Shown here: positions 541 through 24,629 of the stretch, piece by piece
Layout: the number at the start of each line of letters is the position of its first letter
Numbering within the stretch: the first letter of the stretch is position 1
Position numbers and translations under genes: made by a program
Notes under the pieces: model-generated
Told to the model about the DNA's origin: nothing
Database searches by the model: none
The model's input: the letters and a program-made list of their open reading frames with translations, nothing else
NCBI GenBank assembly: GCA_963663165.1
Contig: OY760175.1
Span: 5,568,001-5,632,000, forward strand
Direction of reading: 5' to 3'
Source: an uncultured Desulfospira sp.
GTDB lineage: Bacteria > Desulfobacterota > Desulfobacteria > Desulfobacterales > Desulfobacteraceae
Length of the DNA: 64,000 nucleotides

Positions 541-645
541 TTATGTAGCGTGTTTGATTATGTTGTGAGTTTTATTCATTTTTATTCAAAAAGATTTTTC
601 AAATCTTTCATTTTATTCGTATAATTCCAAATCATATGCATAGAA

Positions 646-673
646 AAAGCCCGGAGTAGCCCCTCCGGGCTTT
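646..673 (+). promoter_or_regulatory. Conserved stem-loop upstream of the accessory gene pair
   Basis: AAAGCCCGGAG-TAGCCC-CTCCGGGCTTT (11-bp stem); analogous hairpin at 15760-15790 on minus strand. Confidence 0.6.
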
Positions 674-768
674 GATTGTGAACTCCCGTCGATAGCCGGA
701 GAAGCCCACACACACAGTTATATTTCTATATCATTTTCCGGTTATCTGCAATACCGGAAAAATCTAAA

Positions 769-1155
769 ATGCTTTTAATTCCAAATACATGCCGATGGTG
801 CCATTTCGTATTTTTTGTTTGCAGGTTCTGCTGGAGAGGGCAGGCCTATTGTTGCAGGGACTGCCGTAAGGCCGGAATCCTCAGAAACAAAAGAGAAGCA
901 CAGCGACGATACCGCCAGACCGAGAAGGGGAAAAGACGGCATCGGGAAGCCGAGAACCGGCGTCGGCATCGAAAAAAAATTCAAGAGACAAAAAACATGG
1001 ATGATACAGCTTCCACAGTGCTGCCTGCTTGGTGTAGGACAATAATATTGTGGATTTTGTTTCAGATTCAGGGCCTTCCAATCAAACCATATTGTCAGTT
1101 CTGCGGCTCTTCAGGTCAAGTCGTCACACAATTTCCCCGGCGGGGATATGGATAA
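769..1155 (+). CDS. Cys-rich putative Zn-binding protein (RIT accessory gene 1)
   Basis: CxxC..CxxCWRGQxYCCxxC, basic helix, CxFCG..FPRRGYG; homolog at 15221-15691. Confidence 0.8.
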   Translation: MLLIPNTCRWCHFVFFVCRFCWRGQAYCCRDCRKAGILRNKREAQRRYRQTEKGKRRHREAENRRRHRKKIQETKNMDDTASTVLPAWCRTIILWILFQIQGLPIKPYCQFCGSSGQVVTQFPRRGYG

Positions 1156-1177
1156 ACGTAAAAACTGGAGGCGCGGC

Positions 1178-1588
1178 ATGGTAAAAAAAGAAATCCTGAA
1201 CCCTTCAAGGGTGCGTTGTATCAAAGGAGGATTTAGTTTTATCCCCCATCGGTTTCTTACGGGTGGATTTTTGCGAGCATTAAGCCGGGACGAGTTGTTA
1301 TTGTATTTTTTCCTGGTTCTGGCCGGTGACCGCAACGGATTAAGTTTTTACAGTTATGATAAAATATGCACCCTGCTAAAAATGCAACTGGACCAGTACA
1401 TTGAAGCTCGGGATGGATTGATGGAAAATGATCTGATTGCCTTTGACGGCACCATTTACCAGGTGCTTTCCTTACCGGCCAACCTTATACAATCTGCTGT
1501 ACAAAAAAAATCTTCCCTGAACAGCCGTCAACCTGAATCAGTTGGAAAAATTTTGAGCAAACTGGTTATGGAGGCCGATCATGGTTGA
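1178..1588 (+). CDS. Putative winged-helix/HTH protein (RIT accessory gene 2)
   Basis: GGAGG RBS before ATG 1178; homolog at 14836-15258; overlaps the first recombinase start. Fold is inferred. Confidence 0.75.
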   Translation: MVKKEILNPSRVRCIKGGFSFIPHRFLTGGFLRALSRDELLLYFFLVLAGDRNGLSFYSYDKICTLLKMQLDQYIEARDGLMENDLIAFDGTIYQVLSLPANLIQSAVQKKSSLNSRQPESVGKILSKLVMEADHG

Positions 1589-2498
1589 GCAGACACCCAA
1601 AAGTCCGCCCGGTTATGATCTGGATCAGATCCGCCGGGATTATCTGGACCATATGCTTAAAATCAAGGAAAGCTCTCCTTCTCAAACCTGTTGCAGGACC
1701 AAAATTATCAAAGCGTTTGACAGTTATCTGCAAACATCGGGAGTCTCACTGGTCAATATAAACATAGGGCATGTTGATGATTTTCTGGCAAGGTTCAATG
1801 CCCCATATGCAAAGAGTACCCAGGGGGTATACCGTTCCTGTTTTCGAGGCTTTTTGCACTACCTGTATAATGAACGGCATTTGATCCAACAGAATTTAGC
1901 CCCGCTTGTGACCGGTCCGCCAATGTTTGCTCAAGTCAAGCCTCCTAAATTTTTAAGACCCGGTGAAGTCCGTCAGTTATTTGATCATTTGCCCTGTGCA
2001 ACATCCAAAGAGCTTCGTGTCTATGCACAGGTTCACCTGGCTTATTATCTTGGATTGCGCCCCATTGAAATCAGCCGCCTTACTCTGGACGATATCTGTT
2101 TTGCCAAAGGACTGCTAAACCTGGAAAACACAAAAAATGCAAAGCCCCTTCAATTGCCCATTCCCGATGAAGTTATCAAAGCAATCACCGCTTATATCGT
2201 TGGAGGCAGGCCTAAAAGTCAGTCTCGCTCTCTTTTTTTAACCAGCCATTGCCCACCTTACAGAGCTGTAAGTGCCTGGCTCACCAGGCACGATTTAACA
2301 AAGGCGTTGCGGGCTGCCGGTCTTCCCGGTACAGGATATTGGCTGCGCCACACCTTTGCACAAAACATGCTGGAAGCAGGTGCCGGCATTTTTGAAATCA
2401 AAGAAATGATGGGGCATTCCATCATTGATTCCACAAAAGTATATCTAAGTATCCACAAGGAATTGATGCGCCGGGTGTTGTTCGATGAAACCGTTTAA
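1581..2498 (+). CDS. Tyrosine recombinase (RitA-like)
   Basis: GLRP, LRH, GHS and Tyr motifs. Confidence 0.9.
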   Translation: MVEQTPKSPPGYDLDQIRRDYLDHMLKIKESSPSQTCCRTKIIKAFDSYLQTSGVSLVNINIGHVDDFLARFNAPYAKSTQGVYRSCFRGFLHYLYNERHLIQQNLAPLVTGPPMFAQVKPPKFLRPGEVRQLFDHLPCATSKELRVYAQVHLAYYLGLRPIEISRLTLDDICFAKGLLNLENTKNAKPLQLPIPDEVIKAITAYIVGGRPKSQSRSLFLTSHCPPYRAVSAWLTRHDLTKALRAAGLPGTGYWLRHTFAQNMLEAGAGIFEIKEMMGHSIIDSTKVYLSIHKELMRRVLFDETV

Positions 2499-3459
2499 AA
2501 GCTTTTTGGCCACAGAGATGGAAAACTTTATTGTTTACCGGCAAGGACTGGGATACAGTTGCCATATGCTCCGGTGGGCCTTGCTTACCTTTGACGATTT
2601 TTTAATGAGGCAGCCGGATCTCTCAGACATTTGGATGCCCCATTTTTATATCACCTTTAAAAATGAGATTGGCCTTGAGCCCTCCGGCGTAGCCAGCATT
2701 CTAAATGTAGTTCGAGGCTTTTTTGATTATCTGAAACGGCAGCGGATAAATCTTGATAACCCTTTGAAAGATGTGACCGCTCCGGCCCGGCGCACCTTCA
2801 TCCCCTTTATATTCTCACCGGAGCAGGTAGAAATGTTACTGGGGGTGGTATGCGGACGGATCCGGCAAACCCCTATGCGGTTCCTTAAAGATTACAGTGA
2901 ATATCTGGTGATCCTTCTGCTTGCCCGCTGTGGGCTGAGGATGAATGAACCCTTGCGCCTGAGATTGAAAAATTACCGGCCGGATGAAAAGACGATTTAC
3001 ATAGAGAAAACCAAGTTCAAAAAGGACCGTCTTATCCCTATTCCAAAATCAACTGCCATGCAGATTGACAACTATCTTTTAACCAGGGCCGCTTTAATTG
3101 AAAACGATATGAATCCCTACCTGTTCATGGGGATAGGGGAAAACGGCTTGAACGATAACCGTATTCGCTCTGTTTTTCACGATGCTGTGCGTCAAATCGG
3201 GATCCGCCGCCCAAGGAAAATTATCGGCGACACGACCTTTGGGAAGCCCACTCCGCACTGTTTACGGCACTCTTTTGCCATTAACACCTTGAAGGCAGCC
3301 ATTGCCCGGAAACAATCACCCCGGAATGTGCTGCCGGTGCTTGCCGGCTATATGGGTCATGTTGAGTATAAATACACCATGGAATATTTGAAAGCAGTTG
3401 ATGCTGAAAGCCGCGACAGCCTGTTCAAATTTACCACCGGCAGAAGGGATGAATCATGA
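2485..3459 (+). CDS. Tyrosine recombinase (RitB-like)
   Basis: CGLR, HCLRHSFA, YMGH, EYL motifs; overlaps neighbours. Confidence 0.9.
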   Translation: MKPFKSFLATEMENFIVYRQGLGYSCHMLRWALLTFDDFLMRQPDLSDIWMPHFYITFKNEIGLEPSGVASILNVVRGFFDYLKRQRINLDNPLKDVTAPARRTFIPFIFSPEQVEMLLGVVCGRIRQTPMRFLKDYSEYLVILLLARCGLRMNEPLRLRLKNYRPDEKTIYIEKTKFKKDRLIPIPKSTAMQIDNYLLTRAALIENDMNPYLFMGIGENGLNDNRIRSVFHDAVRQIGIRRPRKIIGDTTFGKPTPHCLRHSFAINTLKAAIARKQSPRNVLPVLAGYMGHVEYKYTMEYLKAVDAESRDSLFKFTTGRRDES

Positions 3460-4475
3460 ACCTGACCCGTTGCGTTGTTCAATTTTTTGACCAATACCTG
3501 CCTTATGTCAAAGGGTGCCGCCCCAATACGATCAAAAGTTACCGGGATACCATGCGCTTTTTTTTACCGTTTGCTGCCGAATACCACAGCGTAAAGGTCA
3601 GTTCGCTCAATCTGGAACATATCACGGTAGAATTAATTTTGCAGTTTCTCAATGAGCTTGAATCCAAACGGTCCAACACGGCTAAAACCCGGAACCAGCG
3701 CCTGGCCGTTTTAAAGTCTTTTGCCAAAATGATCCGTTTTATTTATCCCGAGCAACAAAAACTGACCAATGCGATCCTTGATATTCCCCGGAAACGAAGC
3801 CAACACAAGTTGATCGGATTTTTGTATCCCCAGGAGATCAATCAAATCCTTAATGCGGTCCAACTTAAAAGAAAGGACGGGTTCCGAGATTATACCCTTC
3901 TGTATCTATTATATGATACCGGTGCCAGGGCAACGGAAATCGCTACCCTTGAGATGGATTATTTTGATTATGAAAATCAAACTCTGGCGATTCTTGGGAA
4001 GGGTAACCGATATCGACAAGTTCAGTTGCTTGGGAAAACAGTAGAGCTTATGCATCAGTATATTGAAGAACATCGCAATACGCCAATCCATCCGTTTAAA
4101 AAAAGGCTGTTCATCAACCAAAGAGGAACAAGCTTGACCCGCCACGGTATCAACCGGATCTGTAAAAACTACCTTGAACAGGCTTTACCGGCAAAGCGGA
4201 CAGCGACCATGCACCCCGTCCATAGCTTCCGTCATTCGTGTGCCGTTCGAATGCTCTCAGAGGATCGGCCTTTATCTGAAATTAAGAATCGCTTGGGGCA
4301 TTCTAATGTCAAATCCACAATGGTTTACTTAAAGCTTGATCTAGGCCAGAAGCGACATTTACAAGAGAACTTCATCCAGTTCACCAAACAGCACCTGAAA
4401 TCTGATCCGAAAATTGAGGAGTTGATCCAGTGGGAAAACAAGCAAAACGTTCTTGAGTGGCTGGATAGTCTATAG
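3456..4475 (+). CDS. Tyrosine recombinase (RitC-like)
   Basis: TGAR, GKG, HSFRHS, LGH, VYL motifs. Confidence 0.9.
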   Translation: MNLTRCVVQFFDQYLPYVKGCRPNTIKSYRDTMRFFLPFAAEYHSVKVSSLNLEHITVELILQFLNELESKRSNTAKTRNQRLAVLKSFAKMIRFIYPEQQKLTNAILDIPRKRSQHKLIGFLYPQEINQILNAVQLKRKDGFRDYTLLYLLYDTGARATEIATLEMDYFDYENQTLAILGKGNRYRQVQLLGKTVELMHQYIEEHRNTPIHPFKKRLFINQRGTSLTRHGINRICKNYLEQALPAKRTATMHPVHSFRHSCAVRMLSEDRPLSEIKNRLGHSNVKSTMVYLKLDLGQKRHLQENFIQFTKQHLKSDPKIEELIQWENKQNVLEWLDSL

Positions 4476-4658
4476 ATCCTTACAGACTTCATCACCAGCA
4501 CTCCTCAGGGCAAACTGTAGCTGTTTATTATGTTTAGTGATTTGTTGCAAATTTGTCATACCCTTGATAACCAACTGTTTATTTGAACGATTTTGACTTA
4601 CGGCATTACGGCGCCCAAACCACGGTCAATCAAGGCTTCAGGACCGCTCGCAACATAA

Positions 4659-4746
4659 CTCCAATAAAATCAGAATACTGACTGCTTTCATCTTTAAAAC
4701 ACCAAGTCATAACAACAGAATTGTCAACAACAAAATCATTACCCAT
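4659..4746 (-). pseudogene. 5' fragment of PIN-domain (VapC-like) toxin interrupted by RIT copy 1
   Basis: Reads MGNDFVVDNSVVMTWCFKDE.. directly after the antitoxin stop codon; PIN N-terminal VVD motif. Confidence 0.7.
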
Positions 4747-5100: not shown

Positions 5101-7411
5101 ATCGGGTAGGTCGGGGGCTTTACAGCCCCTTTCCCCCCTCAGAACCGTACGTGACAGTTTCCCGTCATACGGCTCAAGCATTTCTAAGGCTGAGCCTTGC
5201 GGGGCCGCCCGGCTGTTTTCTCTTGCCAATGCTGAAATTTACAGTTATTTCATTACATATTTTCTCGGCCGCTGTGACAGGGATCACCTTTGGTTTCACC
5301 CGTCTTGCCCGGAAGTATTGTTGATGTTCCGGGTCAAAAGGATTTGCATCGCTTTTGATTTTGATGTGCCGTTGGATATGTATGCTGTGCGCTTTGATGA
5401 GTTCGGATGTTCTCGGGTTGCCGTTTTTATCTTTGACCACCGTTGAGAACCGCCCCGGTTTTGAGCCCTTTGACCAGTACGTCTTTTTCAACCATTGGAT
5501 GCTTTTATTCCGGTGACGTCGTTTCACCCATTGCCACGCTTCATTCCATATGTACCCGTCAACATAGCTGAAAGTTTTTGCTGAGACAACATGTTTGTGA
5601 TAGTTCGCCCAACCCCTTATTTTCATGTTAAGATCATGAATCAGAGCCTCGGCTTTCGATCCCCGGTGCTTCCTGAACGTCTCGTGGATTTTATCCATGA
5701 AGGCCTGCACATTTTTCCTGGATGGTTTAATGAGCAGTTTGCCGTCATACTTACGAACGTTTTGGCCCAGAAAATCGAATCCCCGGTCAATTCGGGTAAT
5801 CAGGGTCTTTTCTTCAGACAGGGATAGATCCCGTTCCGAGAGAAATCTGATTATGGCCGGTTTGACCTTGTCTTCAAGAAGTTCCCGGGTTGCACCGGTA
5901 ATAATGAAATCATCAGCATACCGGATGACGTTGATTTTGGAACTGATGTCCTTACCGTTGCGTCTGTCCCTGACAGGGGCAACAGATCCGGCAGTCCCTT
6001 CAATGCCGTCCAGAACCATGTTGGCCAGTGTGGGAGAGGCAATGCCGCCTTGCGGTGTTCCCCGGCCTGTTGGAAAGAATTTACCGTCCTCCATAAACCC
6101 GGAAGCCAGCCATTTGGTAAGGATCATCTTATCCATAGGGATATGGTCGATCATCCAGTCATGGCTGATTTCATCAAAGCAGGCTTTAATATCCGCTTCA
6201 AGTATCCAGACCGGCGAGGTTTTCTTGGCCAGTGTATTAAAGCATTGGGATATGGCGTCCGCACATCGCCTGTATGACCTGAATCCGTATGAATTGTGGT
6301 CGGCCAGTGTTTCTGCTATCGGCTCCAATGCCAGTTTATACAATGCCTGAACAGCCCTGTCGATCATTGTGGGAATACTTAACGGACGTTTCTTGCCGTT
6401 CTTTTTGGGAATATAGATCCGCCTGAGCGGTGATGGCTGGTATCCTCTCCGTTTGAGGTTGCCTGCTGCCTGGAATTTCTGCCTGGCGGTTTTCCAGGTG
6501 ACGTTGTCGACACCCGGAGTGCGTTTCCCTTTATTGGAGGTCACGCGTTTTACAGCTAACAGCTTTGCCTGGTAAGAGTGGGTCAGAAGCCACTGGAGGG
6601 CCTTGGCCCGTCTGTATCTTCCTTCTTTCACAGCCTTTGCGATACGCATTTGCAGTCTTTTAACAGCTTCATAAATGGCTTTCCAATGAATGGACTTCCA
6701 ATTCCTGAAACTGCCGATGGGCGCACCAGCTGTTGCCGTCATTTGCCTTCCCATCTTCAAAGATTCTCCAGACTATCTCGCAAAGAAACACCTGCCCGGG
6801 TGTGCCTGTAGTCACACCCGCCGGACGTCAGCTCCCTTTCGGGCCGGATAATGTTGAAGGTCAGTAGATCCATCTCAATCCGTATCCACCTCATTACAAG
6901 ACGGCATTCGCTTCTTCCTGCATCTTATTCCCGCACCCCCATCAGTGTGCCTTGCGGTTTCACCTGCCGAATGTTCCCGGCGAAGATACGGGGTTTCCAC
7001 GTTCCGCATTATTGCCAATTAGTGGATGACTTAGGTCCGCCCTCTGCACCGGCGGCGCAACATCTCACGCGGCAGTTGAGAAACCTGCATCCTGACCGCT
7101 CACCTTTTGGTCCCAGCTTACCAGCCTCTTTAGCTTGTTCTCCCTGACGGTACTTACGGAACATTCAACTACTTTGACCATATCATCCAAACCCTTGCCC
7201 TCACCCGGAATGAGGCTTCCAGGAGGGTATCCGCCTCACGGCTTCCACCCCTTCCGCAGTTGCGGAATTCGGTACGTTGTCGGTTGGGCTTCACACCGTT
7301 GCCGGATGCACCGACCACCGCATGCCACCTAGGGTACCGGCAGGAGAATGCCGGGTTTGGTCAGGACCGACTGGCCCGCCAAACAGCCAATAATGCGACT
7401 TCGTGTCGCAC
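5101..7411 (-). mobile_element. Group II intron, full length (2311 nt)
   Basis: 5' GTGCG at 7411; domain V GAGCCGTATGACGGGAAACTGTCACGTACGGTTC; domain VI ending CCCGAT at 5101; internal RT ORF. Confidence 0.95.
5174..6760 (-). CDS. ltrA: Group II intron reverse transcriptase/maturase, no evident HNH endonuclease domain
   Basis: TPGVD, GTPQGG, RYADD, GFDFLG motifs plus X domain. Confidence 0.93.
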   Translation of the reverse strand: MKMGRQMTATAGAPIGSFRNWKSIHWKAIYEAVKRLQMRIAKAVKEGRYRRAKALQWLLTHSYQAKLLAVKRVTSNKGKRTPGVDNVTWKTARQKFQAAGNLKRRGYQPSPLRRIYIPKKNGKKRPLSIPTMIDRAVQALYKLALEPIAETLADHNSYGFRSYRRCADAISQCFNTLAKKTSPVWILEADIKACFDEISHDWMIDHIPMDKMILTKWLASGFMEDGKFFPTGRGTPQGGIASPTLANMVLDGIEGTAGSVAPVRDRRNGKDISSKINVIRYADDFIITGATRELLEDKVKPAIIRFLSERDLSLSEEKTLITRIDRGFDFLGQNVRKYDGKLLIKPSRKNVQAFMDKIHETFRKHRGSKAEALIHDLNMKIRGWANYHKHVVSAKTFSYVDGYIWNEAWQWVKRRHRNKSIQWLKKTYWSKGSKPGRFSTVVKDKNGNPRTSELIKAHSIHIQRHIKIKSDANPFDPEHQQYFRARRVKPKVIPVTAAEKICNEITVNFSIGKRKQPGGPARLSLRNA

Positions 7412-8788: not shown

Positions 8789-9783
8789 ATCGGGTAGCCG
8801 GGGGTAGTTATCTACCCCAGGCCCCCTCAGAACCGTACGTGACAGTTTCCCGTCATACGGCTCAAGCATTTCTAAGGCTAAGCCTTGCGGGGCCGCCCGG
8901 TTGTTTTAGCAATAATGAAATTTACAGTTATTTCATAGCATATATCCTTGAGCATCTGCCCGGAAAGTATTTTTCTTTTTCCGGGTCAAAAGAGAACATC
9001 CTTTTGAAAGATGCCTCTGGCGTGTATGCTGTGTGCTACTTTAACAACCTTTGCGATACGCATCTACAGTCTTTTAACAGAATAAATCTGCAGATGGGCG
9101 CACCAGCTATTGCCGTCATTTGCTTTCCCATCTTCAAAGATTCTCCAGACTCTCTCGCAAAGAAACACCTGCCCGGGTGTGCCTGTAGCCACACCCGCCG
9201 GAGGTCAGCTCCCTTTCGGGCCGGATAATGTTGGGATGTTCTCCTCAATCCGTATCCACCTCATTACAAGATGGCCTTCGCTTTTTCCTGCATCTTACTC
9301 CCGCACCTCCATCAGTGTGCCTTACGGTTTCACCTGCCGAATACTCCCGGCGAAGATACGGGGTTTCCACGTTCCACACTATTGCCAATTAGTGGATGAC
9401 TTAGGCCTGCCCTCTGCACCGGCGGCGCAACATCTCCGTGCAGGCAGTTAGGAAACCGGCAGCCTGACCGCTCACCTTTTGGTCCAAGCTTACCAGCCTC
9501 TTTAGCTTGTTCTCCCTGACGGTACTTACGGAACATTCAATTAATTTGACCATATCATCCAAACCCTTGCCCTCACCCGGATTGAGGCTTCCAGGAGGGT
9601 ATCTGCCTCACAGCTTCCACCCCTTCCGCAGTTGCGGAATTCGGTACGTTGTCGGTTGGGCTTCACACCGTTGCCGGATGCACCGACAACCGCATGCCAC
9701 CTAGGGTACCGGCAGGAGAATGCCGGGTTTGGTCAGGACCGACTGGCCCGCCAAACAGCCAATAATGCGACTTCGTGTCGCAC
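8789..9783 (-). mobile_element. ORF-less (internally deleted) group II intron, 995 nt
   Basis: Same 5' GTGCGACACG, domain V and CCCGAT 3' end as 5101-7411; only scraps of the RT ORF remain. Confidence 0.9.
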
Positions 9784-10672: not shown

Positions 10673-10824
10673 AATATTTTTTGCTACTATTTTGGAAATA
10701 ATGCTTAGGGCCTCAGAAAAATTAATATCCACAATTCCATAGTCTGAATTCTGATTTCTATAGACAACATGGAATCGATAGTTTATGGTCAACATGGAAG
10801 ATTACATAAAAATACAGGAGGACC

Positions 10825-11430
10825 ATGTTTGATCATTCTAAGCACAATTTACCCAAAACTATATCGGAATTAACGCCACCACTAAAGGATTTTCTGAATA
10901 CCACTCGAAGCAAATTAAAAGGCCATGAACGGCGCCAATTCATGGCACGCGTTGTCTCCCTTATGGGGCACGGCGGACAACTAAAGGCTGAAAGAGAACT
11001 GGGTTGGGATCGGAAAACAATAATCAAAGGGCGACGGGAAATAGAAAGCGGAGTTACCTGTGTTGATAATTTTTCCGGACGAGGCCGGAAATCGTGTTTA
11101 GAACATTTTCCGAATTTAAAAGAGGACATAACTCGTATTGTAAACCCTATATGTCAGACTGATCCTACATTCCGTACCCAGAATTTATATTCCCCAATAT
11201 CTGCGAATGAAGTATTCCGTCGATTAGTTGACGACATGGGATATGACCCTGAGAATATGCCAACAGTACGGACTCTATCCACCATAATGAATAAATTGGG
11301 TTTTAAACTGAAGAAGGTCGCCAAAGCCAAGGTAAAAAAAAATTCCTGAAACAGACATCATTTTTGAATATGTGCATAGGACAAACCAACTAGCCGATGA
11401 AACAGATGGCGTTTTACGTATCTCAATGGA
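10825..11430 (+). pseudogene. ISAzo13 transposase 5' part
   Basis: Same as the 31334.. copy up to the insertion point. Confidence 0.85.
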
Positions 11431-11699
11431 TGTTATCGCCGGTGATCAAGGTCACCACCTTTGCCGGCAACGAACCGTCCCCACCTGTGATATATTGACT
11501 TGTCAGGGCTTTTCGCAGGTGTAATATTTGAGGGAAGATACCATTCTCATTTGTATCGATAATTTGCAACACAATCAGCTAAAACAAGATATATTAATGG
11601 AATAGCGCCATAGCAATCAATTTGGTTGCAGTAAAGCACCTGCGGTTGGAAGAACACGCTCACCAACAGGCGTCAATCCCGATTTTGGAAGTAAAAAAG

Positions 11700-11733
11700 C
11701 CGGGTTTTATACGAGGACGTATAAAACCCGGCA
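11700..11733 (-). terminator. Probable terminator hairpin after istB
   Basis: GCCGGGTTTTATACG..CGTATAAAACCCGGC followed by a T-run on the minus strand. Confidence 0.6.
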
Positions 11734-11748
11734 GATGTGAAGAGATGG

Positions 11749-12537
11749 TTATTGGGGTATGGACTGGGGATTAGTAGTGTTCGTTGTGTTGGGACCTTCC
11801 GTTCGATAACTGAGTCCGTCCCGGATATTAATGATGTGAACATTGTGCATCAATCGATCGATAATGGCATGAGTTACAACCGGATCTCCCAGAGTCGTCC
11901 CCCAATCCTCAAGACTGATTGAAGATGTGGCAATAAAGGCGGTATCGTCCTGGCAGACGCTGATCAAATCCAGCAGCAGGCTGGGATATTCCGGCTTTGT
12001 GCGGATACCGCCCACATTATCTATGATCAGAAGATCAAAACGGCTTAAGCCGGCGACCACCTCATCGGTGGATTCGTCAGCCAATGACGTATACAGCATG
12101 GCCAGAAGTTTTTGCAGGGAAAAAAATCGAACCTTATAACCCGCACGGCAGGCCTGGTCGCCAAGGGCTGAGGCAATATGAGTTTTGCCCGTGCCGGTTT
12201 TCCCAAAAATAAGCAGCGGCTGCTTTCGATCCACAAAGGATAGCTCCATCAGATCTTTGAGGTGCTCTACATTCAGGCTTGGCTGGAAGTTAAAATCAAA
12301 GTTATCAAAGGTCATGTTTCTGGGGAAATCCGCTGTTTTTAGCCGCTTTTCAAGGGATCGGTGCTTTCTTGCCTTCATCTGTACGTCCACGATGTCGGCC
12401 AGGAACGCCAAATGACCGGATTGATTTTTCTGCGCCTTGGCAAGGGCCTGCTCCAGATATTGGGCCATATCCTTGAGATAAAGCTTGCGCAGTTTCTTTT
12501 TAACCTGGTCGCTTAAGTTTTCATTCATCCTTGCCAT
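11749..12537 (-). CDS. istB: IS21 helper ATPase IstB
   Basis: FDFNFQP, GKTGTGKT Walker A, LLIID, AIIDRLMH. Confidence 0.92.
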   Translation of the reverse strand: MARMNENLSDQVKKKLRKLYLKDMAQYLEQALAKAQKNQSGHLAFLADIVDVQMKARKHRSLEKRLKTADFPRNMTFDNFDFNFQPSLNVEHLKDLMELSFVDRKQPLLIFGKTGTGKTHIASALGDQACRAGYKVRFFSLQKLLAMLYTSLADESTDEVVAGLSRFDLLIIDNVGGIRTKPEYPSLLLDLISVCQDDTAFIATSSISLEDWGTTLGDPVVTHAIIDRLMHNVHIINIRDGLSYRTEGPNTTNTTNPQSIPQ

Positions 12538-14023
12538 CCATTGTTTTTCTGTTAATCAGGTGGTCATACCTTTGTGGGTTATCCTGCTCCACTGAACAGG
12601 ATTTCAAATAGCTCCGGGTGTTGTTGGGCAGACCTTTTCCGGCTTTTGTTTTGTTTGAAGCTTTAATGTTTTTCCCCTGGATGATACGCAGGACGGCATC
12701 AGCACTAAATGAGTCAAACCGCGTGGCATGAGCTAATGCCCCTGAGACCACATCCGCACCATAGCGGTCGGCATATTTGAGGATACGGCCCATATGGTAC
12801 CCGGCAGCGCTTTTCCGGGTTTCTTTCAATCCGTTATAATAGACCTGCGCCACCTCACCCAATCTCAAAAAGGCATCTTTGAGCAATTGACTCTGGCCTG
12901 TCATCTTCCTGTACAGGGCTTCATGTTCAGGCAACACCTGCCTGTCTTCTTGAGTGTAAACATGCCGGCAATCCATCGTTTCATCACACCATATTTCAAT
13001 GTGATCACGGAACAAACGGACCTGGACATAACGGCCTATCAGTTCAGGATTGGCAGAGTATCGTTTTTTGTCGATGGTGACACAAAAATCAACGTTAACA
13101 AGTCGACGTACTTCCTTAAAAAATTGATCCGTTTTATTCCATGGCACAGGCTTTAACAGACTTTTTTCCCTTGCCAGGCGATCCACAGGCCTTTCCCGGG
13201 TGGTACCGTGGATACGGACATTGGCTGTGTTCGCCCGCCAGGCATCGGCCTTGTTATTGAGATCCTCAAGATCAATAAATTCTTTGCCTCTAAGGAAATT
13301 GTCTTCAATATACCGGAACGGCCGCTCTACCTTGCCGTGTCGTTCCTTTTTGCCGGGTAGAAGGATGACGATCTCAAAGTCATACTCCTGGGCAAACCGT
13401 TTAAATACCGGATTGATCCAAACGGTTCCGGGGCCCGTGTGCCTGCCCACCGTGGTCATATTGTCATAGGTGATTTTGTGGGGAACCGCCCCGATCTCGT
13501 CAAACGCCTCTTCATGCAACCGGATCACTGATTCTATAGTTTCATCAAAAAAGTGACGTATAAATATCCAACGACTGAAGCACAATACAAAAGATCCGGT
13601 ATGCACCACCACGCGTTGTCCACCCATGTACACACTATGAGGACTCCAGTCCATCTGCCCCTCATCTCCAGGGGCATGATCAATTGGAGGCCTGGGCACC
13701 TTCAAGCCTTTGGGCCGGATTATTCTGATATACTCCTTGAGGATGGAGTATCCGCCCGTGTACCCCAACAACGTGATCTCTTCCAACACCCGAACCCCGC
13801 TGAGATGTTTTTCTTTTACAAGGTAACCGATTTTGGCCTTGTAAGGATCAAGTTTGCTTTTGCGGGGACTGGTTTGAGGCGCATTAATAACATTGTTGCA
13901 GCCCAATGCCCTGCGCACTGCCTTGCGGCTGTGCCCGGTCTGTTTTGCTGTCTGACGGATGGATGCTGTGCGCCCAAAGACTTTACGAATACGTTCCTGT
14001 TCCTTTTCACTCAACCGGCTCAT
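12521..14023 (-). CDS. istA: IS21 transposase IstA
   Basis: N-terminal HTH, SKLDPYK, QMDW, YDN, GKVER, HGTT motifs. Confidence 0.92.
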   Translation of the reverse strand: MSRLSEKEQERIRKVFGRTASIRQTAKQTGHSRKAVRRALGCNNVINAPQTSPRKSKLDPYKAKIGYLVKEKHLSGVRVLEEITLLGYTGGYSILKEYIRIIRPKGLKVPRPPIDHAPGDEGQMDWSPHSVYMGGQRVVVHTGSFVLCFSRWIFIRHFFDETIESVIRLHEEAFDEIGAVPHKITYDNMTTVGRHTGPGTVWINPVFKRFAQEYDFEIVILLPGKKERHGKVERPFRYIEDNFLRGKEFIDLEDLNNKADAWRANTANVRIHGTTRERPVDRLAREKSLLKPVPWNKTDQFFKEVRRLVNVDFCVTIDKKRYSANPELIGRYVQVRLFRDHIEIWCDETMDCRHVYTQEDRQVLPEHEALYRKMTGQSQLLKDAFLRLGEVAQVYYNGLKETRKSAAGYHMGRILKYADRYGADVVSGALAHATRFDSFSADAVLRIIQGKNIKASNKTKAGKGLPNNTRSYLKSCSVEQDNPQRYDHLINRKTMDGKDE

Positions 14024-14843
14024 GGTGCCCTCCTATCAACTCATTGAGCCGTTTCATCCGGGCACCGGCCCGCCCTATAAAGTCTTTAAGGGCGCAGACC
14101 TTGGAACCATTGATCGTGCCGCTGCCAATGCAGTTGTTCAGCTTGGACATTTTTGAAAGAATGGCATCAATAATCAAATAATAATTTTCCTTGTCCCGGC
14201 TTACGGACTCCAGCGCTTGCCTGGGAGATTCAAGCAGGTGGCGCCTGGCTCCGGGATCACTGGTCTTGCACCACAGGTCCACCAGACGGTTCACCTCCCG
14301 GGTTTTAAGGTTGTGTTTTTGAATACAAAGAGAAAAATCGGCCTGGGTTGCAGGCTGCAACCGCGCCAGTGACGGACCGACCCCGGCAGGGAGCAGCCCA
14401 AGTTTGATATCGTGGACAATTTCCGGGGTCAGGCTGCGGATCATGGAAAGCCGTCGGCAAACCCAGCTTTTATGCCGCTCAAGGAGTATCGCCGCTTCAA
14501 CCTGATTGAGCCCTTCTATTTCTACAAGTTCCCAGACCACCAGGGCCTCCATGATCGTGGAAAACCCATCCGGGCGGTTCAGAAGGTAGAGCAATGCCTT
14601 GGCTTCTGCAGCACTTTTTTTCAACACAGCCACTTTAAGCGTCTTCATGCCAAGAAGGCCTGCACAGCGATGCCGCTTGAAACCGTCTATTAAAATATGG
14701 CAACCTCCTTGCTCAACCGCAACAACAGCCGTTAATTGGCCATGCTTGACTAATGAAGCCGCCATCTTTTCCTGGGCACCGGCGTGGACCGGCCGCAGGA
14801 ATCCCAGACGTAAATCCAATTGGTCCGGACGCAGGTTAATCAT
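14007..14843 (-). CDS. ParB/Srx N-terminal domain + HTH protein
   Basis: SL..HGQL..V, LIDGFKR motif, HTH (LNQVEAAILLERHKSWVCRRL). Confidence 0.8.
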   Translation of the reverse strand: MINLRPDQLDLRLGFLRPVHAGAQEKMAASLVKHGQLTAVVAVEQGGCHILIDGFKRHRCAGLLGMKTLKVAVLKKSAAEAKALLYLLNRPDGFSTIMEALVVWELVEIEGLNQVEAAILLERHKSWVCRRLSMIRSLTPEIVHDIKLGLLPAGVGPSLARLQPATQADFSLCIQKHNLKTREVNRLVDLWCKTSDPGARRHLLESPRQALESVSRDKENYYLIIDAILSKMSKLNNCIGSGTINGSKVCALKDFIGRAGARMKRLNELIGGHHEPVE

Positions 14844-15258
14844 TTGGACCTCCGGCTATATTGAGGCTTTTTTGAAAAATCTCCCCGATTGAGATAAGGC
14901 CACTGCCGCCGGTGGGTTGCTTAGGCGCCTTGGACGTCGGTGCTGCAACATTTTTTTTGGGAAGGGAAAGCACTTGAAACAGTCGGCCGTCAAAGGCTAT
15001 GAGATCTTTATCAATGAGCCCGTTCCTGGCCTGGATATATTCGTCCAGGCGGATGGCCGTCAATGAACAGATTTTATCATAGCCGTAATAAGACATTCCC
15101 TGACGATCTGCCACCATCACCAGAAAAAGGTACAGCACAAGCTCCTGGTGGTTCAGGCTGCCCCAATACCCCTGGCGGATAAACCGGTGGCTTATCCATG
15201 CGAAACTGCCGTTAATTTTTCTAATTCGATGGTCCTTCAACGGTTCCTTGGTAATCAT
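14836..15258 (-). CDS. Putative winged-helix/HTH protein, homolog of RIT accessory gene 2
   Basis: I.G.F..I.HRF, EL.LY.FLV...DR.G.S.Y.YDKIC, YI.AR.GL...DLIAFDG...QVLSLP shared. Confidence 0.8.
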   Translation of the reverse strand: MITKEPLKDHRIRKINGSFAWISHRFIRQGYWGSLNHQELVLYLFLVMVADRQGMSYYGYDKICSLTAIRLDEYIQARNGLIDKDLIAFDGRLFQVLSLPKKNVAAPTSKAPKQPTGGSGLISIGEIFQKSLNIAGGPND

Positions 15259-15691
15259 TTTTACCCTCCTTGGAAATATAATGATGAAAATTGTCGCCTG
15301 AATACCGTCTGCCATATCCCCGCCGGGGGAATTGATCTACAATCAGACCTTTTCTTCCGCAAAAACAGCAGCATGGATGGGAAGACGGAGGCGTTACCCG
15401 AAGACTATCATTGGATTTGGAGGGTGTTGAAGTGTCATCATCCACGGTTTTTTGAGAATTTCTTAATCTCCGCTCTTTTTCCTGCCGACGATGGGCTAAC
15501 TTACCTTTTTCAGTTTGTCGATATTTCTTCTGGGCGTTACGGTGAGCTTCTCTTTGAGCAGTTTCCCGACAGGATTCACAGCAATAAATCTGTCCACGCC
15601 AGCAACTGTGGCAGATATAAAAAATGCTGCCGCATCGTTTACACTGGATTTCTTTTAATAAAACGATCTCCACATTTTCCGTTCTTGCCAT
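15221..15691 (-). CDS. Cys-rich putative Zn-binding protein, homolog of RIT accessory gene 1
   Basis: CWRGQ.YCC..C, YRQTEKGK, C.FCG, QFPRRGYG shared. Confidence 0.8.
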   Translation of the reverse strand: MARTENVEIVLLKEIQCKRCGSIFYICHSCWRGQIYCCESCRETAQREAHRNAQKKYRQTEKGKLAHRRQEKERRLRNSQKTVDDDTSTPSKSNDSLRVTPPSSHPCCCFCGRKGLIVDQFPRRGYGRRYSGDNFHHYISKEGKNDYQGTVEGPSN

Positions 15692-15759
15692 AAAACGGAA
15701 GCCGTGATTATATGAAGATGTTGGGTAGCTTCCGTATTTTATATGGATGTCTGCTTTTT

Positions 15760-15790
15760 GAAGGCTCGAAGCGGCCTACTTCGAGCCTTC
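15760..15790 (-). promoter_or_regulatory. Conserved stem-loop upstream of the accessory gene pair
   Basis: GAAGGCTCGAAG-TAGGCCG-CTTCGAGCCTTC on the minus strand. Confidence 0.6.
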
Positions 15791-15970
15791 CTTATTTTTC
15801 AAATCCATCCAAGAAACAAAACCAAATTCAAAGAAAAAAAGGAAGAAAATATATTTTTAAAATATGGGATGAAGAAGAGACAAAGTAAAAAGGATGGAGG
15901 CTTTGTTACCGGCTAAAGGGGTGGCCTGCTTCATCGCCATAGGTGGGGACGGTTACGACCGGCGGTAACA

Positions 15971-16605
15971 CAATGGACGCAAAAGCCACTATTAAAATAG
16001 GGCCTTATTCCCGAGGCGGATATAGTCGTTGCAATCTTAAAGCGGCGGACCATGATTTTAAACCCGATTCCCTTTTGAAACTTTTCGGTATCAACATACC
16101 TGCTCTGGATGAAAATTATATGTACTTCACTGAAAGCAACATCACCTCTGATTTCATGATTGATGCGCTGGAATCACTCTGGCCTTCTTTGAACGCAAGA
16201 TTCGCCCCACATACACTGGTGATCAATCTTGATAATGGGCCGGAAAATAGTAGCCGAAGGAGCCAATTCATTAGTCGCCTCGTGGACTTTGCCAAATCAG
16301 CATTTGTAAATATTAGTTTGGTGTACTATCCCCCGTACCACAGTAAATACAACCCAATAGAGCGAGTTTGGGGTGTTTTGGAAAATCATTGGAAAGGCGA
16401 ATTGCTGAACAAAATTGAAAAGGTTCTCGGTCTATGTCGAACAATGACATGGAAAGGAGAAAATCCTGTCGTCAAATTAATCAAAGGTGTTTACCCGACA
16501 GGGGTACGTTTGGTCAAGTCCGCCGTGAATAATATAGAAAACAAAATTATTCGGATTCCAGGGATTGAAAAATGGGCTGTTGATATTCCATGCTATGAGG
16601 AATGA
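15971..16605 (+). pseudogene. ISAzo13 transposase 3' part
   Basis: DNGPENS, YYPPYHSKYNPIER motifs. Confidence 0.85.
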
Positions 16606-17439
16606 ATTGTGGGTTTTAATTTTACCACATCCCTTAAAATATAATTAGTTCTTACTAATATTCTTAATTTCCAAAATTTACGGCAAACTCTTTCAAGTCT
16701 TTTCCATCAACTACACCATCTAAATCCAAGTCTCCTTTTTTCCCAATAGCACCTACAACCAACTCATCTGTACCAGCTTTCCCATCATTATCTTTTACTG
16801 TTAAAAGTACATCATAGAACCCTGGAGCCAAATCACTTACAGTTGGAGATATGTCTGTAGCTATTCTGTCATAGGACGAATCAGCTCTGTGTTTCAATTC
16901 CCATTCGTAAGAAACAATCACTCCGTCTTCATCCTGTGACAAAGATGCATCAAGAAAGACTTCATCGAAAACAATCTGATCATCTCCTGCATTTGCTAAA
17001 GGAGGATTTGTATCTGCGGATTCAAATTCGATTTCATGAATAATCATACCATCGTAAGAAGTTGAATAATTGTAGTGAGTTCCACCAGTTATGATGATTG
17101 TAATTTTATCTGTTATTCCTTCATCAAGTTCCATTCTAATCCAGGGAGGTTGCGGCGTTGTAAACCCCCATGTTACCGTTTTGGAATTTAAAGAAAGAGA
17201 ATGAGTGGCTCTGTATCCTTCAAAACCCGGATAATATACTCCGCCAAAAGCCTCATAGACACCTGTATCAGAATCATAATAGTAATCATCGACCTCGAAG
17301 TAACCATTATAGTGCACATTGGTACTTATCAGGTTGCCGGCTAAATATTTTTCTATCTTAATTTCAATAGCAGTATAATTGTCATTGCCTAACCTGGATG
17401 ATAGAACATTAGCAGAAACAATATCCTGAGGTGAATTAA

Positions 17440-20319: not shown

Positions 20320-20616
20320 CCTTACATTCCTTTTTTACCACCTAACGGGGAGCTGAGGGGCCGGGCTTTAAAACCACAAAAACTCCAATTATGTAGCGTG
20401 TTTGATTATGTTGTGAGTTTTATTCATTTTTATTCAAAAAGATTTTTCAAATCTTTCATTTTATTCGTATAATTCCAAATCATATGCATAGAAAAAGCCC
20501 GGAGTAGCCCCTCCGGGCTTTGATTGTGAACTCCCGTCGATAGCCGGAGAAGCCCACACACACAGTTATATTTCTATATCATTTTCCGGTTATCTGCAAT
20601 ACCGGAAAAATCTAAA

Positions 20617-21003
20617 ATGCTTTTAATTCCAAATACATGCCGATGGTGCCATTTCGTATTTTTTGTTTGCAGGTTCTGCTGGAGAGGGCAGGCCTATTGT
20701 TGCAGGGACTGCCGTAAGGCCGGAATCCTCAGAAACAAAAGAGAAGCACAGCGACGATACCGCCAGACCGAGAAGGGGAAAAGACGGCATCGGGAAGCCG
20801 AGAACCGGCGTCGGCATCGAAAAAAAATTCAAGAGACAAAAAACATGGATGATACAGCTTCCACAGTGCTGCCTGCTTGGTGTAGGACAATAATATTGTG
20901 GATTTTGTTTCAGATTCAGGGCCTTCCAATCAAACCATATTGTCAGTTCTGCGGCTCTTCAGGTCAAGTCGTCACACAATTTCCCCGGCGGGGATATGGA
21001 TAA
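20617..21003 (+). CDS. Cys-rich accessory protein (copy 2)
   Basis: Identical protein to 769-1155. Confidence 0.8.
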   Translation: MLLIPNTCRWCHFVFFVCRFCWRGQAYCCRDCRKAGILRNKREAQRRYRQTEKGKRRHREAENRRRHRKKIQETKNMDDTASTVLPAWCRTIILWILFQIQGLPIKPYCQFCGSSGQVVTQFPRRGYG

Positions 21004-21025
21004 ACGTAAAAACTGGAGGCGCGGC

Positions 21026-21436
21026 ATGGTAAAAAAAGAAATCCTGAACCCTTCAAGGGTGCGTTGTATCAAAGGAGGATTTAGTTTTATCCCCCATCGG
21101 TTTCTTACGGGTGGATTTTTGCGAGCATTAAGCCGGGACGAGTTGTTATTGTATTTTTTCCTGGTTCTGGCCGGTGACCGCAACGGATTAAGTTTTTACA
21201 GTTATGATAAAATATGCACCCTGCTAAAAATGCAACTGGACCAGTACATTGAAGCTCGGGATGGATTGATGGAAAATGATCTGATTGCCTTTGACGGCAC
21301 CATTTACCAGGTGCTTTCCTTACCGGCCAACCTTATACAATCTGCTGTACAAAAAAAATCTTCCCTGAACAGCCGTCAACCTGAATCAGTTGGAAAAATT
21401 TTGAGCAAACTGGTTATGGAGGCCGATCATGGTTGA
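21026..21436 (+). CDS. Putative winged-helix accessory protein (copy 2)
   Basis: Identical protein to 1178-1588. Confidence 0.75.
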   Translation: MVKKEILNPSRVRCIKGGFSFIPHRFLTGGFLRALSRDELLLYFFLVLAGDRNGLSFYSYDKICTLLKMQLDQYIEARDGLMENDLIAFDGTIYQVLSLPANLIQSAVQKKSSLNSRQPESVGKILSKLVMEADHG

Positions 21437-22346
21437 GCAGACACCCAAAAGTCCGCCCGGTTATGATCTGGATCAGATCCGCCGGGATTATCTGGACCAT
21501 ATGCTTAAAATCAAGGAAAGCTCTCCTTCTCAAACCTGTTGCAGGACCAAAATTATCAAAGCGTTTGACAGTTATCTGCAAACATCGGGAGTCTCACTGG
21601 TCAATATAAACATAGGGCATGTTGATGATTTTCTGGCAAGGTTCAATGCCCCATATGCAAAGAGTACCCAGGGGGTATACCGTTCCTGTTTTCGAGGCTT
21701 TTTGCACTACCTGTATAATGAACGGCATTTGATCCAACAGAATTTAGCCCCGCTTGTGACCGGTCCGCCAATGTTTGCTCAAGTCAAGCCTCCTAAATTT
21801 TTAAGACCCGGTGAAGTCCGTCAGTTATTTGATCATTTGCCCTGTGCAACATCCAAAGAGCTTCGTGTCTATGCACAGGTTCACCTGGCTTATTATCTTG
21901 GATTGCGCCCCATTGAAATCAGCCGCCTTACTCTGGACGATATCTGTTTTGCCAAAGGACTGCTAAACCTGGAAAACACAAAAAATGCAAAGCCCCTTCA
22001 ATTGCCCATTCCCGATGAAGTTATCAAAGCAATCACCGCTTATATCGTTGGAGGCAGGCCTAAAAGTCAGTCTCGCTCTCTTTTTTTAACCAGCCATTGC
22101 CCACCTTACAGAGCTGTAAGTGCCTGGCTCACCAGGCACGATTTAACAAAGGCGTTGCGGGCTGCCGGTCTTCCCGGTACAGGATATTGGCTGCGCCACA
22201 CCTTTGCACAAAACATGCTGGAAGCAGGTGCCGGCATTTTTGAAATCAAAGAAATGATGGGGCATTCCATCATTGATTCCACAAAAGTATATCTAAGTAT
22301 CCACAAGGAATTGATGCGCCGGGTGTTGTTCGATGAAACCGTTTAA
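21429..22346 (+). CDS. Tyrosine recombinase (RitA-like)
   Basis: Identical protein to copy 1. Confidence 0.9.
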   Translation: MVEQTPKSPPGYDLDQIRRDYLDHMLKIKESSPSQTCCRTKIIKAFDSYLQTSGVSLVNINIGHVDDFLARFNAPYAKSTQGVYRSCFRGFLHYLYNERHLIQQNLAPLVTGPPMFAQVKPPKFLRPGEVRQLFDHLPCATSKELRVYAQVHLAYYLGLRPIEISRLTLDDICFAKGLLNLENTKNAKPLQLPIPDEVIKAITAYIVGGRPKSQSRSLFLTSHCPPYRAVSAWLTRHDLTKALRAAGLPGTGYWLRHTFAQNMLEAGAGIFEIKEMMGHSIIDSTKVYLSIHKELMRRVLFDETV

Positions 22347-23307
22347 AAGCTTTTTGGCCACAGAGATGGAAAACTTTATTGTTTACCGGCAAGGACTGGG
22401 ATACAGTTGCCATATGCTCCGGTGGGCCTTGCTTACCTTTGACGATTTTTTAATGAGGCAGCCGGATCTCTCAGACATTTGGATGCCCCATTTTTATATC
22501 ACCTTTAAAAATGAGATTGGCCTTGAGCCCTCCGGCGTAGCCAGCATTCTAAATGTAGTTCGAGGCTTTTTTGATTATCTGAAACGGCAGCGGATAAATC
22601 TTGATAACCCTTTGAAAGATGTGACCGCTCCGGCCCGGCGCACCTTCATCCCCTTTATATTCTCACCGGAGCAGGTAGAAATGTTACTGGGGGTGGTATG
22701 CGGACGGATCCGGCAAACCCCTATGCGGTTCCTTAAAGATTACAGTGAATATCTGGTGATCCTTCTGCTTGCCCGCTGTGGGCTGAGGATGAATGAACCC
22801 TTGCGCCTGAGATTGAAAAATTACCGGCCGGATGAAAAGACGATTTACATAGAGAAAACCAAGTTCAAAAAGGACCGTCTTATCCCTATTCCAAAATCAA
22901 CTGCCATGCAGATTGACAACTATCTTTCAACCAGGGCCGCTTTAATTGAAAACGATATGAATCCCTACCTGTTCATGGGGATAGGGGAAAACGGCTTGAA
23001 CGATAACCGTATTCGCTCTGTTTTTCACGATGCTGTGCGTCAAATCGGGATCCGCCGCCCAAGGAAAATTATCGGCGACACGACCTTTGGGAAGCCCACT
23101 CCGCACTGTTTACGGCACTCTTTTGCCATTAACACCTTGAAGGCAGCCATTGCCCGGAAACAATCACCCCGGAATGTGCTGCCGGTGCTTGCCGGCTATA
23201 TGGGTCATGTTGAGTATAAATACACCATGGAATATTTGAAAGCAGTTGATGCTGAAAGCCGCGACAGCCTGTTCAAATTTACCACCGGCAGAAGGGATGA
23301 ATCATGA
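22333..23307 (+). CDS. Tyrosine recombinase (RitB-like)
   Basis: One L/S difference from copy 1. Confidence 0.9.
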   Translation: MKPFKSFLATEMENFIVYRQGLGYSCHMLRWALLTFDDFLMRQPDLSDIWMPHFYITFKNEIGLEPSGVASILNVVRGFFDYLKRQRINLDNPLKDVTAPARRTFIPFIFSPEQVEMLLGVVCGRIRQTPMRFLKDYSEYLVILLLARCGLRMNEPLRLRLKNYRPDEKTIYIEKTKFKKDRLIPIPKSTAMQIDNYLSTRAALIENDMNPYLFMGIGENGLNDNRIRSVFHDAVRQIGIRRPRKIIGDTTFGKPTPHCLRHSFAINTLKAAIARKQSPRNVLPVLAGYMGHVEYKYTMEYLKAVDAESRDSLFKFTTGRRDES

Positions 23308-24323
23308 ACCTGACCCGTTGCGTTGTTCAATTTTTTGACCAATACCTGCCTTATGTCAAAGGGTGCCGCCCCAATACGATCAAAAGTTACCGGGATACCA
23401 TGCGCTTTTTTTTACCGTTTGCTGCCGAATACCACAGCGTAAAGGTCAGTTCGCTCAATCTGGAACATATCACGGTAGAATTAATTTTGCAGTTTCTCAA
23501 TGAGCTTGAATCCAAACGGTCCAACACGGCTAAAACCCGGAACCAGCGCCTGGCCGTTTTAAAGTCTTTTGCCAAAATGATCCGTTTTATTTATCCCGAG
23601 CAACAAAAACTGACCAATGCGATCCTTGATATTCCCCGGAAACGAAGCCAACACAAGTTGATCGGATTTTTGTATCCCCAGGAGATCAATCAAATCCTTA
23701 ATGCGGTCCAACTTAAAAGAAAGGACGGGTTCCGAGATTATACCCTTCTGTATCTATTATATGATACCGGTGCCAGGGCAACGGAAATCGCTACCCTTGA
23801 GATGGATTATTTTGATTATGAAAATCAAACTCTGGCGATTCTTGGGAAGGGTAACCGATATCGACAAGTTCAGTTGCTTGGGAAAACAGTAGAGCTTATG
23901 CATCAGTATATTGAAGAACATCGCAATACGCCAATCCATCCGTTTAAAAAAAGGCTGTTCATCAACCAAAGAGGAACAAGCTTGACCCGCCACGGTATCA
24001 ACCGGATCTGTAAAAACTACCTTGAACAGGCTTTACCGGCAAAGCGGACAGCGACCATGCACCCCGTCCATAGCTTCCGTCATTCGTGTGCCGTTCGAAT
24101 GCTCTCAGAGGATCGGCCTTTATCTGAAATTAAGAATCGCTTGGGGCATTCTAATGTCAAATCCACAATGGTTTACTTAAAGCTTGATCTAGGCCAGAAG
24201 CGACATTTACAAGAGAACTTCATCCAGTTCACCAAACAGCACCTGAAATCTGATCCGAAAATTGAGGAGTTGATCCAGTGGGAAAACAAGCAAAACGTTC
24301 TTGAGTGGCTGGATAGTCTATAG
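23304..24323 (+). CDS. Tyrosine recombinase (RitC-like)
   Basis: Identical protein to copy 1. Confidence 0.9.
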   Translation: MNLTRCVVQFFDQYLPYVKGCRPNTIKSYRDTMRFFLPFAAEYHSVKVSSLNLEHITVELILQFLNELESKRSNTAKTRNQRLAVLKSFAKMIRFIYPEQQKLTNAILDIPRKRSQHKLIGFLYPQEINQILNAVQLKRKDGFRDYTLLYLLYDTGARATEIATLEMDYFDYENQTLAILGKGNRYRQVQLLGKTVELMHQYIEEHRNTPIHPFKKRLFINQRGTSLTRHGINRICKNYLEQALPAKRTATMHPVHSFRHSCAVRMLSEDRPLSEIKNRLGHSNVKSTMVYLKLDLGQKRHLQENFIQFTKQHLKSDPKIEELIQWENKQNVLEWLDSL

Positions 24324-24629
24324 ATCCTTACAGACTTCATCACCAGCACTCCTCAGGGCAAACTGTAGCTGTTTATTATGTTTAGTGATTTGTTGCAAAT
24401 TTGTCATACCCTTGATAACCAACTGTTTATTTGAACGATTTTGACTTACGGCATTACGGCGCCCAAACCACGGTCAATCAAGGCTTCAGGACCGCTCGCA
24501 ACATAACTCCAATAAAAAGTTAATTTTTCATGCACCAAGAGCTTTCAAAAAGACGGCGCAGGTAGCCCGGTCGCCTCGAGCGTTTTGTTGGGCTTTTATT
24601 TGATGGGCTTTTATTTGAATCAAATCAGA

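Follow-up and report, generated by a model that had tools for sequence, protein, structure and literature searches.

The leader and its host elements

Two transposons of different types lie in the window, the whole 64,000-nucleotide stretch of an uncultured Desulfospira sp. analysed here, and both carry the same kind of leader in front of a gene for a Cys-rich protein (Table 1). The forward-strand element has three adjacent, overlapping tyrosine recombinase genes, the arrangement by which PMC3414803 characterizes RIT elements. The reverse-strand element has istA and istB as well as TG...CA ends with a target duplication, which places it in the IS21 family. A third element of the genome, referred to as C (4278 bp, six copies), has the same leader and Cys-rich gene and lacks the HTH gene. 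Element C (G000:C1 near 1874471; also L033 and L038) has TG...CA ends, with 6-bp target duplications in most copies, and its genes encode the Cys-rich protein, a CHC2 zinc finger, an unknown protein of 187 aa, a protein of 560-580 aa and an AAA_22 ATPase. The 560-580-aa protein has no match in either Pfam or PHROGs, and element C looks like an unclassified transposon type. RIT element D (four copies; G000:C1 near 6735262) has the HTH gene with a different first gene, and neither the Cys-rich gene nor the leader.

Table 1 Features of the leader and its host elements (window positions)
Feature	Position	Strand	Remarks
RIT element	541..4669	+	4129 bp; 8 genome copies, the second at 20389-24517
Sense promoter-like site for operon mRNA, RIT copy	596/598-625	+	-35, 16-18 nt, TATAAT
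Predicted antisense RNA, RIT copy	639..716	-	about 75-78 nt; made up of a G/U-rich 5' tail, SL1 and the terminator; promoter geometry gives the estimate of its ends
Hairpin h1, probable intrinsic terminator of the predicted antisense RNA	646..673	-	6-nt loop that varies; U-tract complementary to 644-648
SL1 of the predicted antisense RNA	677..708	-	complementary to a' (677-688) and a; stabilised by G·U on the minus strand, weak on the mRNA
Segment a of mRNA leader	691..703	+	pairs with b; covered by the predicted antisense RNA
Antisense promoter-like site, RIT copy	723..751	-	-35 at 751-746, 17-nt spacer, -10 at 728-723, which has TA but lacks T at -7
Segment b, switch strand	734..746	+	partner is a or c
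Segment c, ribosome-binding-site position	753..761	+	poor GGAAA in this RIT copy
Cys-rich gene, RIT copy	769..1155	+	always 3' of the leader; 8 conserved Cys positions, basic helix, C-terminal CxxC
HTH_36-like gene, RIT copy	1148..1588	+	below Pfam cut-off; overlaps the Cys-rich gene and ritA
RIT trio (three overlapping tyrosine recombinase genes)	1581..4475	+	
IS21 element	11431..15970	-	4540 bp; Cys, HTH, ParB-like, istA, istB; 5 genome copies
IS21 leader switch	15675..15740	-	a 15740-15728, b 15702-15692, c 15684-15675
Antisense promoter-like site, IS21 copy	15685..15714	+	-35 at 15685-15690, TA after 18 nt
Predicted antisense RNA, IS21 copy	15720..15796	+	terminator 15760-15790
Predicted antisense RNA gene, second RIT copy	20487..20564	-	identical

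The Cys-rich protein matches no Pfam family at cut-off, and the Atlas assigns it to unnamed clusters; its family comprises 863 clusters at E up to 1e-10. The HTH protein falls in Atlas clusters in which a minority of members have HTH_36. Neither a profile search of the PDB nor PHROGs yields a relative of it, and a Rep family is absent from the Pfam and PHROGs matches. The genes downstream of the leader all overlap at their stop and start codons, which suggests translational coupling. In one protein, P0176, the Cys-rich domain is apparently fused to a product resembling that of the CHC2 zinc-finger gene, which fits a tight link between genes one and two.

The surroundings are rich in other mobile DNA. 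A 6-bp direct repeat flanks the ends of the RIT copies (541 and 4669 in the window); the window copy adjoins the end of a DDE_5-type IS at 541-543, and there the left direct repeat is missing. Six of the eight RIT copies stand immediately ahead of a short tandem-like repeat tract, the same each time, suggesting a preferred target. The IS21 element sits inside an ISAzo13-type element (10705-16637), an intact copy of which lies at 31214-32599. At 5101-7355 and 8789-9727 the window also has a group II intron, which contains an ORF of 528 aa, and another, shortened copy of it that lacks the ORF.

Relatives of the leader

Leaders were compared in two sets. From 53 GTDB loci we excluded five without an N-terminal match, three that were too short (L005, L009 and L022) and L043, a partial gene without a leader, which counts as a miss; the final set has 44 distinct leaders, with the three elements of the genome itself (RIT, IS21 and C) added in. 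The metagenomes gave 80 loci, six of them too short, and 68 distinct usable leaders, among which L133 lacks the 5' arm. The sets overlap slightly, and together they hold 110 distinct leaders. Desulfogranum marinum (L026) is among the carriers.

The leader is tied to the Cys-rich gene. A covariance model trained on close relatives, two of the 19 genome copies among them, gives 19 strong matches in the genome, which are exactly the 19 copies of the Cys-rich gene, and no strong match to a free-standing RNA copy. Among 150 other genomes of the phylum, 21 have a match at E up to 0.01. The three strongest precede Cys-rich genes; the remaining 18, all weak and with no Cys-rich gene nearby, were treated as chance terminators. 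Since leader and Cys-rich gene occur together on RIT, IS21 and C but not on D, the leader travels with the Cys-rich gene and not with the HTH gene or the recombinase. A tree of 37 Cys-rich proteins, among them L038 with a probable frame error, requires four changes for the RIT label and four for the IS21 label, at least two of them forced in each case by well-supported branches. None of 200 bootstrap trees allows a single label change. These repeated changes imply that the module has moved between transposon backbones.

A hairpin that probably folds on the antisense strand

A preliminary description of this DNA pointed out a hairpin in each of the two elements, at 646-673 and 15790-15760, ending 95 nt before the aligned codon of the Cys-rich gene. 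Both hairpins are present, with folding energies far better than those of shuffled sequences (z -3.9 and -6.7), and the distance is 95 nt in both copies. Over 43 leaders it ranges from 84 to 107 nt, with 95 as the commonest value. The hairpin, here h1, is a general feature of homologous leaders: a pattern search finds it in 43 of 44 GTDB-set leaders, the exception being L036, in which the loop is longer, and in 67 of 68 usable metagenome leaders. The stem is conserved in sequence and the loop hypervariable, with 28 different loops among 67 leaders. The motif AGTAG, which had been singled out as shared by the two hairpins, is not conserved: it occurs in six of 43 GTDB-set and in none of 67 metagenome leaders, and we rejected it.

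Two kinds of evidence indicate the strand on which h1 folds. Stem cells other than Watson-Crick pairs comprise 21 A·C on the mRNA, equivalent to G·U on the antisense strand, versus two G·U on the mRNA (43 leaders); the 21 cells involve five positions of the stem, a single one of which accounts for 11, probably through one lineage, and as the leaders are kin such counts overstate the number of independent events. The 67 metagenome leaders likewise favour antisense G·U, by six to zero. The U-tract lies on the same side. The 10 nt after the stem contain on average 6.2 U on the antisense strand versus 3.8 on the sense strand in the GTDB set (antisense richer in 38 of 42), and 7.3 versus 3.3 in the metagenomes (65 of 67). 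The A-run directly 5' of the h1 stem is the U-tract of an opposite-strand terminator. When aligned as antisense RNA, the outer helix of h1 is 98.9% paired and has compensatory changes, and the structure contains six pairs with double changes. A simple terminator scan of the window calls the IS21 hairpin (15760-15790) on the antisense (+) strand; it does not call the minus-strand RIT terminator. The G·U bias and the side of the U-tract together argue that h1 is the intrinsic terminator of an antisense transcript, and on that strand it most likely folds to terminate a small RNA that acts in trans. A sense-strand attenuator terminator, either at h1 or at the downstream helix b:c, was rejected because of the U-tracts.

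The T-rich tract noted earlier upstream of the hairpin is present, and in the RIT copy it contains the sense promoter-like site. A sense promoter pattern of similar kind occurs in only 38 of 108 leaders. A small minus-strand ORF in the tract shows no conservation among ten leaders examined.

A predicted small antisense RNA

Between h1 and the Cys-rich gene, the antisense strand of 43 of the 44 leaders has TTG, and in 42 TA follows 17 or 18 nt past the hexamer. The pattern TTG-N3-N17/18-TA is found on this strand in 108 of 110 leaders, compared to 357 of 4033 upstream control regions of the host. A strict consensus promoter scan finds it in neither the RIT nor the IS21 copy, because T at -7 (TAnnnT) is present in only 11 of 44 leaders. 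The missing T appears normal in this host, as only 43 of 132 TTGAC sites of the host have it; at such sites TA occurs at spacer 17 in 24% of cases versus 6-8% at spacers 15, 16 and 20. The predicted antisense RNA would be 71-82 nt long over the leaders.

Between the promoter pattern and h1 lies a further stem-loop, SL1, which is more stable on the antisense strand in all 44 leaders. After correction for composition its z is -2.44 on the antisense strand versus -1.27 on the sense strand, and lower on the antisense strand in 40 of 44. The G·U pairs would stabilise SL1 in the small RNA, whereas in the mRNA the stem would be weak and segment a left free. Each of the three predicted RNAs of the genome (RIT, IS21 and C) has 75-78 nt of perfect complementarity to its cognate leader versus 6-14 nt to the non-cognate ones. 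By sequence, the leader thus contains the parts of a small antisense RNA gene with its own promoter and terminator, and we consider it highly probable that this real and conserved element is such a gene.

The mRNA leader can fold in two ways

Downstream of h1, three segments of the mRNA leader can form two mutually exclusive helices, a:b and b:c, and c occupies the position of the ribosome-binding site. Of 107 leaders, 68 have GGAGG there and a further 26 have GGAAG or GGAGA. An in-frame start follows c by 4-13 nt in only 57 of 107; in 33 it is closer, and 17 have none. The preliminary description had also reported a second inverted repeat near the start of the gene in each element. Both exist, and they are not equivalent: the one at 734-761 is helix b:c, while that at 15695-15735 is the competing a:b. 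The RIT and IS21 copies are each able to form both. The antisense -35 falls within the loop of b:c.

Both helices are conserved. Pairing over 37 leaders reaches 81.9% in a:b and 94.8% in b:c, compared to at most 58% in slid controls. Both a:b and b:c covary, with scores as high in none of 500 shuffles; the counts of double-change pairs in a:b and b:c are not above shuffles (297 and 274 of 500). Wobble pairs favour the mRNA strand, by 29 to 15 in a:b and by 37 to 7 in b:c. In the distant GC-rich locus L137 all three segments have new letters and the pairings are kept, as judged by eye and by the b:c fold.

Equilibrium folding of the free leader gives a:b as the dominant helix in 18 of 44 leaders and b:c in 17, so the ON state is not dominant everywhere. 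When the antisense-covered part is blocked, b:c dominates in 37 of 44, an outcome that is partly built in. For the genome copies, the probability of a:b in the free leader is 0.90 (RIT), 0.50 (IS21) and 0.98 (C); that of b:c with the covered part blocked is 1.00, 0.56 and 1.00, again partly built in. The 10 nt after c contain on average 3.8 U, with at least six in only 10 of 107 leaders. Without a U-tract behind b:c, termination of transcription there is unlikely.

We also considered whether the leader is coding. In 24 of 110 leaders the Cys frame stays open over 135 nt, and in 50 of 110 it is the best frame; a suitable uORF is found in only 14 of 107 leaders. Both a coding leader and a conserved leader peptide were rejected.

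Relatives in Pseudomonadota

Distant homologs of the Cys-rich gene (about 30% identical) are found on IS21 elements of Pseudomonadota plasmids, where they are mostly unannotated. Fifteen of 38 plasmid records were examined, giving 14 distinct loci; Cupriavidus taiwanensis (L164) is one of the carriers. In loci L164-L178 the unannotated Cys-rich gene precedes istA, and there is an antisense hairpin with a UUGGCG-type loop. In twelve of the 14 distinct loci there is an antisense promoter, its -10 conserved, and 73-115 nt downstream of it a long hairpin; L172 and L174 have neither. The mismatches in these long hairpins are 16 A·C versus one G·U on the mRNA (11 distinct). The loops are often UUGGCG, which we take to resemble the antisense loop motif of IncF/IncI plasmids. 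Folding does not reproduce a switch in SD accessibility in the leaders of the 14 distinct loci. The antisense gene of these leaders appears analogous to that of Desulfobacterota, and homology of the leader sequences is not implied.

A model for control by the leader

The preliminary description had taken the hairpin for a cis-acting element of the module, such as an attenuator, protein-binding site or origin-like site. The comparison bears out that the module has a conserved nucleic-acid element of its own, and it supports an attenuator-like role; a binding or origin site centred on AGTAG, whether on the sense strand or on ssDNA, does not stand up. The cis-acting part of the leader is most likely the a/b/c switch downstream of h1, with h1 itself belonging to the trans-acting small RNA. 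Folding strand, U-tract, promoter pattern, both helices and linkage to the Cys-rich gene can be read from the sequences, and we think it likely, on these grounds, that a small antisense RNA gene in the leader drives a translational switch, and that this switch governs a portable control module of transposons.

For transcription, the pairing pathway, SD occlusion, coupling and copy control we infer the following scheme. A sigma-70-type promoter straddling helix b:c would fire backwards and yield an RNA of about 75 nt, made up of a 5' tail, SL1 and terminator h1. In the ON state the mRNA would fold into a:b, leaving the ribosome-binding site c free; in the OFF state b:c would form and hide c. 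The antisense RNA would pair with the region from h1 to a, probably starting loop-to-loop or at the C/A-rich linker, and by removing a it would force b:c. This would stop translation of the Cys-rich gene and then, via the overlapping stop and start codons, that of the HTH and recombinase or transposase genes. Since such an RNA could act in trans, more copies of an element should mean stronger repression, and the variable loops should keep co-resident elements independent.

The antisense RNA gene may be real and yet act otherwise: RNase III might degrade the duplex, for instance, transcription from the convergent promoters might interfere, or the RNA might have a trans-acting or guide role. The a/b/c pairings would then count during transcription or be irrelevant. 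The Pseudomonadota leaders, 12 of 14 of which keep the antisense promoter without a detectable SD switch, are in keeping with such a role, as are the mixed free-state folds and the irregular spacing between SD and start. We nevertheless consider it rather unlikely, as both helices are retained with compensatory changes and with G·U pairs that favour the mRNA strand. A guide role in particular finds no echo in the target-site duplications of the IS21 and C copies, which are unrelated to one another and give no sign of guided targeting.

Explanations that dispense with a regulatory RNA fare worse. Were h1 a mere insulating terminator against outward antisense transcription and the helices a cis-only damper of translation, the strand asymmetry and U-tract would look just the same, as they suit any terminator; a promoter pattern that keeps a short, constant distance on the same strand, a further stem-loop specific to the antisense strand between that pattern and h1, and a hypervariable loop on an invariant stem would be out of place, and we regard this explanation as very improbable. 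The probability is smallest for h1 as a palindromic DNA operator or an ssDNA or origin-like hairpin bound by the HTH or Cys-rich protein. Such a site would not be expected to show a one-sided bias of A·C versus G·T mismatches if double-stranded, and the leader persists where the HTH gene has been replaced (element C, L137), is absent from the HTH-only RIT element D and does not conserve AGTAG, even though the stem sequence is conserved beyond structural need and lies upstream of putative DNA-binding genes.

Comparison with known antisense systems

An antisense RNA gene coupled to a translational switch, the reading that we prefer, has parallels on plasmids and transposons. In the accounts of it in PMC6090056 and PMC10194956, the repABC ctRNA (RepE/incA) is an upstream counter-transcribed RNA of 50-59 nt with a terminator stem-loop, which leaves the SD uncovered, refolds the repB-repC mRNA from an SD-free to a repressed state and sets incompatibility. 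The predicted leader RNA resembles it as a small antisense RNA with a terminator just upstream of the regulated gene, and the proposed refolding of the mRNA follows the same logic. As to two alternative folds, one freeing and one repressing the SD, both helices are conserved in the leader, with the mixed free-state preference given above. The RNA differs in its length of about 75 nt and its two stem-loops, in its place before a Cys-rich gene on multi-copy transposons instead of repC on a replicon, and in a repressed helix without U-tract or induced terminator. The leader RNA of the window has no Rfam match at the gathering score; below threshold only unrelated families appear (E up to 10), as they do in eight related loci (E up to 1). 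With no Rfam match, no repC and no induced terminator, it is not a member of the repABC ctRNAs.

According to PMC4513863, RNA-OUT of IS10 pairs at the 5' end of the transposase mRNA and blocks 30S binding, and IS10 repression scales with copy number. With RNA-OUT and art200 of IS200, also treated there, the predicted RNA would share a cis-encoded antisense origin at the 5' end of a transposable element and repression of translation. Unlike RNA-OUT, which overlaps the transposase ribosome-binding site, the RIT-copy RNA would end about 35 nt before the SD (predicted 5' end 716; c 753-761) and work by switching the fold of the mRNA. In place of a transposase gene, the first gene is an accessory Cys-rich one, presumably coupled to several unrelated recombinases.

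Antisense-driven refolding, a first gene coupled to the effector and kissing-loop specificity are also hallmarks of the pT181-type attenuators and of the leader-coupled control of IncFII and IncI plasmids. The module described here would be similar in refolding, in the coupled first gene and in loop-based specificity. It lacks a leader peptide, its first gene encodes a conserved Cys-rich protein, and the scarcity of U after c speaks against an RNA-induced terminator of stem and U-tract, as in pT181 or RepE.

Significance

The RIT passages of PMC3414803 are silent on regulation. In the openly searchable literature, outside which subscription journals and ISfinder lie, we found neither a mode of regulation for RIT and many IS21 elements nor a published description of the leader RNA. 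The predicted leader RNA offers a concrete and directly testable control mechanism and an RNA family without an Rfam match, and the mostly unannotated Cys-rich gene is a marker for locating it. A bolder reading, tentative and a little short of an even chance, is that antisense RNA, RNA switch and Cys-rich gene form a portable plasmid-style copy-number controller that has been swapped repeatedly among RIT, IS21 and an unclassified third type, from Desulfobacterota to Pseudomonadota, with the hypervariable loops acting as transposon 'incompatibility groups' that let elements coexist and count their own copies. The natural loop variants, dozens of them on a single scaffold, could also be a starting point for building orthogonal RNA regulators in anaerobes. 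If the proposed mechanism is true, antisense control of the plasmid type can exist on transposons as a module open to exchange.
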